A stretch of 64,000 bases of DNA, from the IMG/VR virus record IMGVR_UViG_2728369393_000007; one strand, written 5' to 3'. How positions within the stretch are numbered: the stretch's first letter is position 1; every line of letters begins with the position of its first letter. This document shows positions 9,001 through 12,000 of the stretch, one piece after another. The position numbers were made by a program. The stretch comes from a virus. Lineage: Duplodnaviria > Heunggongvirae > Uroviricota > Caudoviricetes.

Positions 9001-12000
9001 CCCGTCGCCGTGAGGTGGCTGCAATACCACAGCCGGACGAAAAAAATCCGGAGATGCCTCCGCCCGCGGTGATATCTCATGGTATTGAATATATGGAGGA
9101 TGGTCTTCCCGATCCGGTGAAAGCTATGGGGCAGATCCTGGTGGAAAACCTGATAATTGACCCGAAACTGGCACTGGATGCGGCCTGGCGACTGGCGCAG
9201 TTCACACACCATAAAAAAGGCGATGCCGGTAAAAAATCGGCAAAAGGTGATGCCGCGAAAAAAGCGGCTAACCGTTTTGCGGTGCCGCCACCTCCCCGAC
9301 TGGTGGTGAATAACCAGAATGAGGAAAGCGGATGATACCTGTATGGAGCACGGCATGTCCGGACTGGGCAGAGCGCCTGAAAAAGGGGCTGTCGATTATT
9401 CCGGCTCCGATTTATCCGGACCAGGCTGCACATGCACTGGCGATTTTTAAACAACTGCGGATTGTGGATGCACCGGGTAGCCCGACATTCGGGGAGTCCT
9501 GTGCACCGTGGGTGTTTGACCTGGTGGCGGCCCTGTTTGGCTCCTACGATGCGCAGACCGGTGTTCGCCATATCAAGGAAGTGTTTATCCTTATCCCCAA
9601 GAAAAACTCGAAGTCCACGCTGGCCGCGGGGATCATGATGACTGCACTGTTACTGAACTGGCGGCAGGCGGCGGGTTACACGATTCTGGCCCCGACAGTG
9701 GAGGTGGCAGCCAACGCCTTCAACCCTGCCAGGGATATGGTACGACGGGACGATGATCTGGATGACCTCTGTCAGGTGCAGACACATATCCGGACCATCA
9801 CCCACAGGGTGACGGACACCACCCTGAAGGTGGTGGCAGCCGATCCGAATACGGTGTCCGGTATCAAGTCCGTGGGGACGCTGATTGATGAATGAGGTAG
9901 CCTGAGTTTAACGGACACTCCTTCCTGAAATAGAATGGCATCAGAAGGAGCTAATAATGAGCAGAAAAACCCAACGTTACTCTAAAGAGTTCAAAGCCGA
10001 AGCTGTCAGAACGGTTCTTGAAAATCAACTTTCGATCAGTGAAGGCGCTTCCCGATTATCTCTTCCTGAAGGCACTTTAGGACAATGGGTTACCGCCGCC
10101 AGAAAAGGGCTCGGTACTCCTGGTTCCCGCACGGTGGCTGAACTGGAATCTGAAATTCTGCAACTGCGTAAGGCGTTAAATGAAGCTCGCCTTGAGCGAG
10201 ATATATTAAAAAAAGCAACAGCGTATTTTGCACAGGAGTCGCTGAAAAATACGCGTTAATCGAACAATGGCGACAACAATTTCCCATTGAAGCGATGTGT
10301 CAGGTATTTGGTGTATCCAGGAGCGGTTATTACAACTGGGTACAGCATGAACCCTCAGACAGAAAACAAAGTGATGAGCGGCTAAAACTGGAGATTAAGG
10401 TGGCACATATCCGCACTCGCGAAACATATGGAACCCGGCGGCTCCAGACGGAGCTGGCAGAGAATGGCATCATCGTTGGTCGTGACCGACTGGCACGTCT
10501 TCGTAAGGAGCTAAGGCTACGCTGTAAGCAGAAACGCAAGTTCAGAGCGACTACGAACTCGAACCACAATCTGCCAGTTGCGCCAAATCTGCTGAACCAG
10601 ACGTTCGCTCCTACAGCACCAAATCAGGTCTGGGTGGCGGACCTGACGTATGTTGCCACACAGGAGGGATGGTTGTACCTCGCTGGCATCAAAGATGTTT
10701 ATACGTGCGAAATTGTCGGCTACGCCATGGGAGAGCGCATGACAAAAGAGCTGACAGGTAAAGCCCTGTTTATGGCGCTCAGGAGCCAGCGCCCACCTGC
10801 CGGGCTAATCCACCACTCTGATCGAGGTTCACAGTACTGCGCATACGATTACCGGGTCATACAGGAGCAGTTTGGTCTGAAAACATCAATGTCGCGTAAA
10901 GGTAACTGTTACGACAACGCTCCGATGGAAAGCTTCTGGGGAACGCTGAAAAATGAGAGCCTGAGCCACTATCGTTTTAATAACCGGGATGAAGCCATCT
11001 CAGTAATACGGGAATACATTGAGATTTTCTACAATCGTCAGCGTCGTCACTCTCGTCTGGGGAATATCTCCCCGGCAGCCTTCAGGGAAAAATATCATCA
11101 GATGGCTGCTTAAAAAAAGAACAAATGGTAGTGTCCGCTATTGCCAGTACACCTCAGAACTGTGGCTGTTTGGCAAGCAGTACAAGGCGGAGGACATGTT
11201 ACGTGAAGCCATTGGCGGGCTGGCTTCACGTCCGGAAGGGTTTGTGGTGTACACAACCACCCAGTCAAATGAGCCGCCTGCCGGGGTGTTCAGGCAGAAA
11301 CTGCAGTACGCCCGGGATGTGCGCGACGGTAAAATTCATGATCCACATTTTCTGCCGGTGATTTTTGAGCATCCTCCTGAAATGGTGGAGAGCGGTGAGC
11401 ACCTGCTGATGGAAAACCTCGCCATGGTTAACCCGAATCTCGGTTATTCGGTGGATGAGGCCTTTCTGTACCGGGAGTATCGTAAAGCCCGGGAAGCCGG
11501 GGAAGAGACTTTCCGCGGTTTCATGTCAAAACACGCCAATGTGGAAATTGGTCTTGCCCTGCGTTCTGACCGCTGGGCAGGGGCGGATTTCTGGGAGCAG
11601 CAGGGCAGGCGCGTCAGCCTGGACGATATCCTGCAGCGCGCTGATGTGGTGACGGTGGGGATTGACGGCGGGGGCCTGGATGATCTGCTGGGAATGTACG
11701 TGACTGGCCGTGACAGGGAAACCCGCGAATGGCTGGGCTGGGGCCATGCCTGGGTGCATGAAACCGCGGTGGTCAGACGGAAGAGTGAGGCATCCCGGTT
11801 TCAGGATTTTGTGGCCTGTGGAGACATGACGATTGTCCGTCGGGTCGGGGATGACACGGCGGAAGTGGCGGAGTATGTGCGTCGTATTCATGAGGCTGAG
11901 TTACTGGATCATATCGGTATTGACCCGTCAGGTGTGGGGCAGATTCTGGATTCACTGGCGGAAGCCGGGATCCCCGATGAGAGTGTGGTGGGGATAAGCC

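Follow-up and report, generated by a model that had tools for sequence, protein, structure and literature searches.

When a transposable element is found within a packaging gene of a prophage, it has to be asked whether the insertion is what disabled the phage or is one lesion among several. This question is raised by a stretch of 64,000 nucleotides (the window) from a virus of the Caudoviricetes, IMG/VR record IMGVR_UViG_2728369393_000007, in which the large terminase gene (terL) of the first of two prophages is interrupted by an insertion sequence (IS), IS600. The evidence makes it very probable that IS600 transposed into the codon of the Walker B glutamate of terL, and that this was one of several independent lesions in a remnant that can neither excise nor assemble. 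As proposed here, a full-length IS600 would have entered the GAA codon for Glu187 and duplicated it. The host element would be a lambdoid prophage with an HK97-type head module and effector genes of a type III secretion system (T3SS), resident in an enterohaemorrhagic Escherichia coli (EHEC) of the O145:H25 type. The insertion would be one product of a lineage-specific expansion of IS600, and the remaining damage would consist of deletions and of a second IS600 at the integrase end.

The IS600 element and its boundaries

The element spans positions 9893-11156 (1264 bp) on the plus strand, in the same orientation as terL, and is the only IS600 copy in the window. It begins with TGAGG at 9893 and ends with CCTCA at 11156, so that its termini have the form 5'-TG...CA-3'. 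The left junction reads ...CTG ATT GAT GAA / TGAGGTAGCC... and the right junction ...GTACACCTCA / GAA CTG TGG CTG..., the slash marking the element boundary. The longest inverted pair of the region is formed by the two element termini, which are complementary at 19/27 positions (70%) over 27 nt. A 3-bp repeat and inverted repeats of this quality would by themselves be unconvincing, as both could arise by chance; what settles the matter is the existence of annotated full-length copies elsewhere and of an empty site in relatives.

Over its whole length the element is identical (1264/1264 bp, 100%) to copies annotated as 'IS3-like element IS600 family transposase' in plasmid records, including those of Shigella sonnei (among them strain 53G, NC_016833.1) and E. 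coli plasmids. Plasmid records with a match to the element numbered 890, and a copy covering at least 80% of it was present in 247. IS600 was first described in Shigella sonnei, and the name is used here on the basis of the annotation of the identical copies by the Prokaryotic Genome Annotation Pipeline (PGAP). Length, ends, orfA/orfB arrangement with a -1 frameshift, DD(35)E motif and 3-bp duplication are all those of IS600 (IS3 family, IS3 group); the element itself presents no differences and only its insertion site is particular. Another IS600 copy of the lineage, located in a prophage lysozyme gene, has GTC on both flanks and so shows the same 3-bp duplication habit.

The coding parts of the element are in good order. 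The orfA and orfB frames are both open, and OrfB carries the DD(35)E triad as D116, D176 and E212 (numbered from the ATG-started open reading frame, ORF), with a K at E+7. A -1 shift at the A7G slippery site is predicted to give an uninterrupted OrfAB of 385 aa, open from 9957 to 11113, and PGAP marks the identical copy in NZ_CP014583.1, the chromosome of E. coli CFSAN004176, as a two-piece coding sequence with 'programmed frameshift'. The RNA fold of 10200-10300 has an energy of -23.1 kcal/mol (z = -2.1) and, judging by what is known of the IS3 family, the stem-loop that follows the slippery site is likely to be the frameshift stimulator. The copy is full-length and apparently transposition-competent. 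Promoter-like sites within the element are no more numerous than in shuffled sequence, the sole match lying inside the left terminal inverted repeat (IRL) and facing orfA, and no outward promoter match was found at the right end. Plus-strand terminator-like sites were likewise sought within IS600 and none was found, the counts not being above those of shuffled sequence. An outward promoter or terminator in the element as an explanation of polarity or read-out was rejected on these grounds.

The interrupted terminase gene and its empty site

Because IS600 starts with TGA, the ORF of the 5' fragment of terL (9332-9895) is closed at 9893-9895 by the element's own first bases and ends ...LIDE-stop. 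The 3' fragment, of 366 codons, has no start codon of its own, and its frame is open back into the element as far as a TTG at 11019 (ORF 11019-12260). When the element and one GAA are removed in silico, by joining 9332-9892 to 11160-12260, the two halves meet in frame and form a 1662-nt ORF of 553 aa. The restored protein is as long as its intact relative in strain JNE132847 and identical to it at 548 of 554 positions, the stop counted. It contains TerL_ATPase (PF03354) at residues 63-224 with 44.8 bits against a cutoff of 23.7, and TerL_nuclease (PF20441) at residues 275-535 with 39.5 bits against a cutoff of 24.

The only solved relative detected by sequence is the large terminase of HK97 (6Z6D), with E = 5.8e-10 to the restored protein. 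In this alignment PKKNSKST corresponds to ARKNGKT (KNSKS to KNGKT) and TLIDE to ILDE, and the aligned motifs are read, from their patterns, as Walker A and Walker B. If LIDE is the Walker B motif, the duplicated GAA is the codon of the Walker B glutamate, Glu187. The locus shares with HK97 both the motifs and the order HNH-terS-terL; the difference is that terL is here split after that glutamate. A terminase on a single polypeptide would be encoded by the restored ORF only, the gene as present being divided. Since a stub ended by the TGA of the element and 366 codons without a start of their own are all that is left, no functional terminase would be expected from this gene, and it may safely be taken, from the way in which the domains are split, that terL is knocked out and terminase function lost.

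The empty site was sought with a 600-nt query made of 9593-9892 and 11160-11459, that is, with the element and one GAA removed. Four E. coli chromosomes match this query at 600/600 positions, ungapped, in genes annotated as 'terminase large subunit', and all four carry a single GAA at the site. At least 80% of the query is covered in 1250 of 5426 complete E. coli genomes, nearly all best matches being at least 90% identical, and the site is also contiguous, at ~95% identity, in records of Stx1a-, Stx2c- and other Shiga toxin (Stx)-converting phages and in phage JLK-2012. With this, the target duplication and the precise insertion are demonstrated, and nothing was found that contradicts the structural reading. 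The initial annotation had thus placed an IS3-family element correct to the base, with intact orfA and orfB, imperfect terminal inverted repeats, a GAA duplication on both flanks and a terL gene split between ...LIDE and LWLFGKQ... whose halves can be rejoined in frame; its term 'IS600-like' was right as to the family, but an element that has every sequence-readable feature of IS600 and of the IS3 family is IS600 itself. With its precise ends, its 3-bp duplication and relatives in which the site is empty, this is a textbook case of IS3-family transposition, ordinary in other respects. The coordinates of the features are collected in Table 1.

Table 1. Positions in the window of the IS600 element, of the interrupted terL gene and of neighbouring prophage and effector genes.
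Feature	Position	Strand	Remarks
IRL, left terminal inverted repeat	9893-9919		Starts 5'-TG; inverted-repeat search and manual alignment
IRR, right terminal inverted repeat	11130-11156		Ends CA-3'; inverted-repeat search and manual alignment
Left GAA copy of target-site duplication	9890-9892		terL Glu187 codon
Right GAA copy of target-site duplication	11157-11159
Sigma-70-like promoter match	9908-9936	+	Upstream of orfA, partly inside IRL; consensus match only, 9/12
orfA	9957-10259	+	100 aa; HTH_Tnp_1 (Pfam, E = 1.5e-20)
Slippery site A AAA AAA G (A7G)	10208-10215	+	In orfA frame
Predicted stem-loop	10217-10257	+	Inverted pair directly 3' of slippery site
orfB	10295-11113	+	HTH_21 and rve integrase core (Pfam rve, E = 3.2e-26)
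terL, 5' fragment	9332-9892	+	Codons 1-187; putative Walker A (PKKNSKST) and Walker B (LIDE)
terL, 3' fragment	11160-12260	+	Codons 188-553 and stop; rest of ATPase domain and whole nuclease domain
HNH endonuclease gene	8126-8656	+	Upstream of terS, same packaging module
terS	8772-9335	+	Directly upstream of terL
Protease-capsid fusion gene	12324-14261	+	645 aa, open in the window
Portal gene	14473-15915	+	Complete Phage_portal domain
Tape-measure gene	15833-19069	+	Directly after portal gene
nleA	25160-26482	-
nleH1-2	28295-29215
nleF	29281-29850
nleG	32007-32654	-
espM1	32838-33428

State of the prophage and origin of the insertion

The interrupted gene lies in a recognizable packaging module, with HNH and terS genes upstream and protease-capsid and portal genes downstream, as in HK97-type cos packaging modules. 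Beyond the portal gene the prophage is incomplete. In comparison with an intact relative (L001), ~4.2 kb are absent at ~16040, where the window passes from L001 position 25182 to 29430, i.e. from the 3' part of the portal gene to the 5' end of the tape-measure gene; seven genes (head-tail connector, head-closure, gp10-like, tail-completion, major-tail and two chaperone genes) are missing there. A further ~1.5 kb with the gene for tail assembly protein I and the beginning of J are absent at ~20850, and ~2.1 kb, from the last part of J through lom to the beginning of the fibre gene, at ~22840. At the other end, which lies upstream of the window, the prophage of CFSAN004176 starts beside ompW with an integrase fragment that abuts a second IS600 (L002 4342-5605), followed by a ydaT fragment. 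This second copy is flanked by GAT and TGT, without a target duplication, and a deletion associated with the element is suggested by this. Between the integrase and ydaT fragments of CFSAN004176 no gene for excisionase, recombination or a repressor is annotated, the early region up to ydaT being gone. The genes for integration/excision, head, connector and tail thus no longer form a complete set, the integrase being judged from CFSAN004176, and the prophage would be unable to excise or to build particles whatever the state of terL.

Two other differences were noted in this part of the prophage. The HNH gene is frameshifted at its 3' end (176 aa, versus 121 aa in intact relatives, with divergence after ...PDPTLPE); it was considered as a further packaging lesion and not counted as inactivating, the HNH core being intact. 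The lysis region (5390-7942) does not align to L001, which is otherwise 96-98% identical, and carries a different holin/lysozyme (rrrD)/Rz cassette together with a PerC-family gene; this is ordinary lambdoid mosaicism.

The window is very close to the chromosome of CFSAN004176 in this region, with no mismatches and six indels over positions 1-29998. Junctions, IS and prophage context are the same there, and RefSeq annotates the split gene and IS600 at NZ_CP014583.1 5146810-5149729 (BCV59_RS27370, RS27380 and RS27385) as 'terminase large subunit domain-containing protein (incomplete)', IS600 transposase and 'terminase TerL endonuclease subunit (incomplete)'. The window differs in a 9-bp stretch at 11491-11499 (CGGGAAGCC as the aligner places it, in the direct-repeat context CCCGGGAAGCCGGGGAAG) that is absent from CFSAN004176; because the length of terL in the window equals that of the intact gene (553 aa), the other genomes seem to have lost it later, by an in-frame deletion in the pseudogene. 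Five single-base indels in G runs (12446, 15817, 21613, 22262 and 22378) probably reflect homopolymer errors of long-read sequencing in one or the other assembly; the capsid gene, open in the window, is 'frameshifted' in the RefSeq record of CFSAN004176.

CFSAN004176 is an EHEC of serotype O145:H25, for which over 50 copies of IS600, including 45 whose ends are complete, have been reported, and IS600 has been proposed as a driver of the diversification of this lineage (PMC5567499). The gene iee, encoding an IS-excision enhancer, is itself disrupted by IS600 in O145:H25 (PMC5567499), and excision of IS600 is unlikely for this reason. The word terminase does not occur in PMC5567499, and the terL hit is documented only in the genome annotation. 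A comparable situation is the decay of prophages driven by IS629 and IS600 in EHEC (small structural polymorphisms; PMC5567499), where an IS3-family element likewise inactivates prophage morphogenesis genes in a poly-lysogenic host. The terL insertion belongs to this expansion of IS600 in O145:H25 and, with a known element, an annotated position and a published expansion, it is already known.

The left junction (9793-9992) is fully covered in only one of the 5426 complete E. coli genomes, CFSAN004176 (NZ_CP014583.1), and because of this the insertion is taken as lineage-specific. Nineteen contigs were retrieved with the exact protein sequence of the 187-aa stub, of which GCA_003015325.1 (L005) carries the true IS junction; it differs from the window by a single indel of ~9 nt, whose position is assumed to be the same as 11491-11499. 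Nine draft contigs end at this very codon, and a hot spot for IS600 at the Walker B codon was considered. It was rejected: these contigs are only 91-97% identical to the DNA of the window and end in ...GAA, ...GAAC (the C being that of an uninterrupted terL, whereas the element has T at this position) or ...GAG. A look-up by exact sequence finds only those contigs that happen to break at that codon of a multi-copy gene, and the nine are taken to be assembly breaks and not IS junctions, which would leave L005 as the only bearer of the true junction among the look-up results.

The most obvious alternative is that the insertion into terL was the primary event, which disabled the prophage and fixed it in the chromosome. 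This is close to what the initial annotation had proposed, namely that packaging is inactivated and the prophage thereby locked in place. The gene is certainly broken, and an IS copy 100% identical to others points to a recent event; the lack of any divergence is, though, easier to reconcile with a late hit on a prophage that was already a remnant. Excision of a lambdoid prophage needs integrase and excisionase, not terminase. The same prophage carries the portal-to-tape-measure, I/J and J/lom/fibre deletions, and in CFSAN004176, nearly identical to the window, the second, duplication-less IS600 marks both a truncation of the integrase and the loss of the early region. Because terminase has no part in excision and other lesions are present, the causal part of the proposal fails: terL is inactivated, as far as the division of its domains allows it to be said, but several independent lethal lesions disable the prophage, and locking in the chromosome is not attributable to the insertion. 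A primary role of the insertion is accordingly considered improbable. An error of assembly, by which terL would have received one of over 50 copies of IS600 that belongs elsewhere, is suggested by the highly repeated state of the element in the lineage and by the homopolymer indels that separate the window from CFSAN004176 and are typical of long-read error. It is hardly credible, as both junctions show the perfect 3-bp duplication that real transposition leaves, and as the same junction occurs in at least three mutually non-identical sequences (the window, NZ_CP014583.1 and GCA_003015325.1).

It could also be supposed that the insertion was selected for a function, either of the TerL stub or of read-out from IS600, e.g. 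by hindering the packaging of a co-resident lambdoid (Stx) phage or by altering the expression of late genes. The stub does retain both Walker motifs, its last residue being the catalytic glutamate, the chromosome of CFSAN004176 has terL copies of this type at four sites, and late transcripts could read through an element that has no plus-strand terminator-like site. On the other hand, there is no outward promoter match at the right end and no sign of recurrence, the draft contigs that end at this codon not being IS junctions; the best-matching other terL copy of CFSAN004176 is itself a pseudogene, and the event fits a random proliferation of IS600. An adaptive insertion is for these reasons very improbable, and it is just as doubtful that the 187-aa stub acts as an accidental, IS-made dominant-negative that co-assembles with related terminases and poisons packaging. 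If it did, being expressed from the late operon on induction of a co-resident lambdoid or Stx prophage, a lower phage output in this EHEC lineage would be the consequence. The best-matching other copy (H18), 99.7% identical over the 600-nt query, was also considered as a source of complementation in trans and was rejected, as it has an internal stop, is annotated as a pseudogene and belongs to another decayed prophage, one with IS600 in its lysozyme gene. In CFSAN004176 this further IS600 (L004 1263-2526) splits the lysozyme gene with a GTC duplication, and the adjacent terL has an internal stop.

A presumably neutral insertion of IS600, as one lesion among several in a prophage remnant, is therefore preferred. 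Some points weigh against it: we infer the loss of terminase activity from the domain split; the terL insertion could precede the deletions; these deletions are defined by comparison with L001, which is not the direct ancestor and has an identity of 94-96% in most of the region that the two share and of 89% in J; and the integrase end lies outside the window and is known only from CFSAN004176, which differs by indels and by larger rearrangements downstream.

The second prophage and the effector genes

Downstream, in the second prophage of the window, a 906-bp segment (48277-49182) is the exact reverse complement of the corresponding stretch of CFSAN004176 (100% identity) with collinear flanks, and its ends coincide exactly with an internal ATG and with the stop codon of a DUF968 gene. 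No inverted repeats were found at its breakpoints, and none of the 5426 complete E. coli genomes contains its left junction; a natural inversion, an error of assembly and an editing of the sequence are all conceivable. Collinearity with CFSAN004176 is lost at 50762 (~50762-54600), inside a DNA methyltransferase gene, and resumes in the tail chaperone and tape-measure genes. This second, 'Stx2a-like' prophage is without stx2, lysis and head genes, which fits the element described as CFSAN004177_P01 (PMC5567499).

Between the two prophages lies a cluster of T3SS effector genes (25160-33428), accompanied by IS256, IS630 and IS3 fragments and a degenerate integrase; the gene names were taken from the annotation of CFSAN004176. 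We infer that the remnant has been kept because of these adjacent genes (nleA, nleH, nleF, nleG and espM1) and not because of the insertion into terL. The effector-carrying prophage, located beside ompW in CFSAN004176, would be an immobile remnant, and nleA, nleH and nleF are unlikely to spread by particles of its own making. The junction of terL and IS600, in turn, is a marker of the lineage and could serve for typing.

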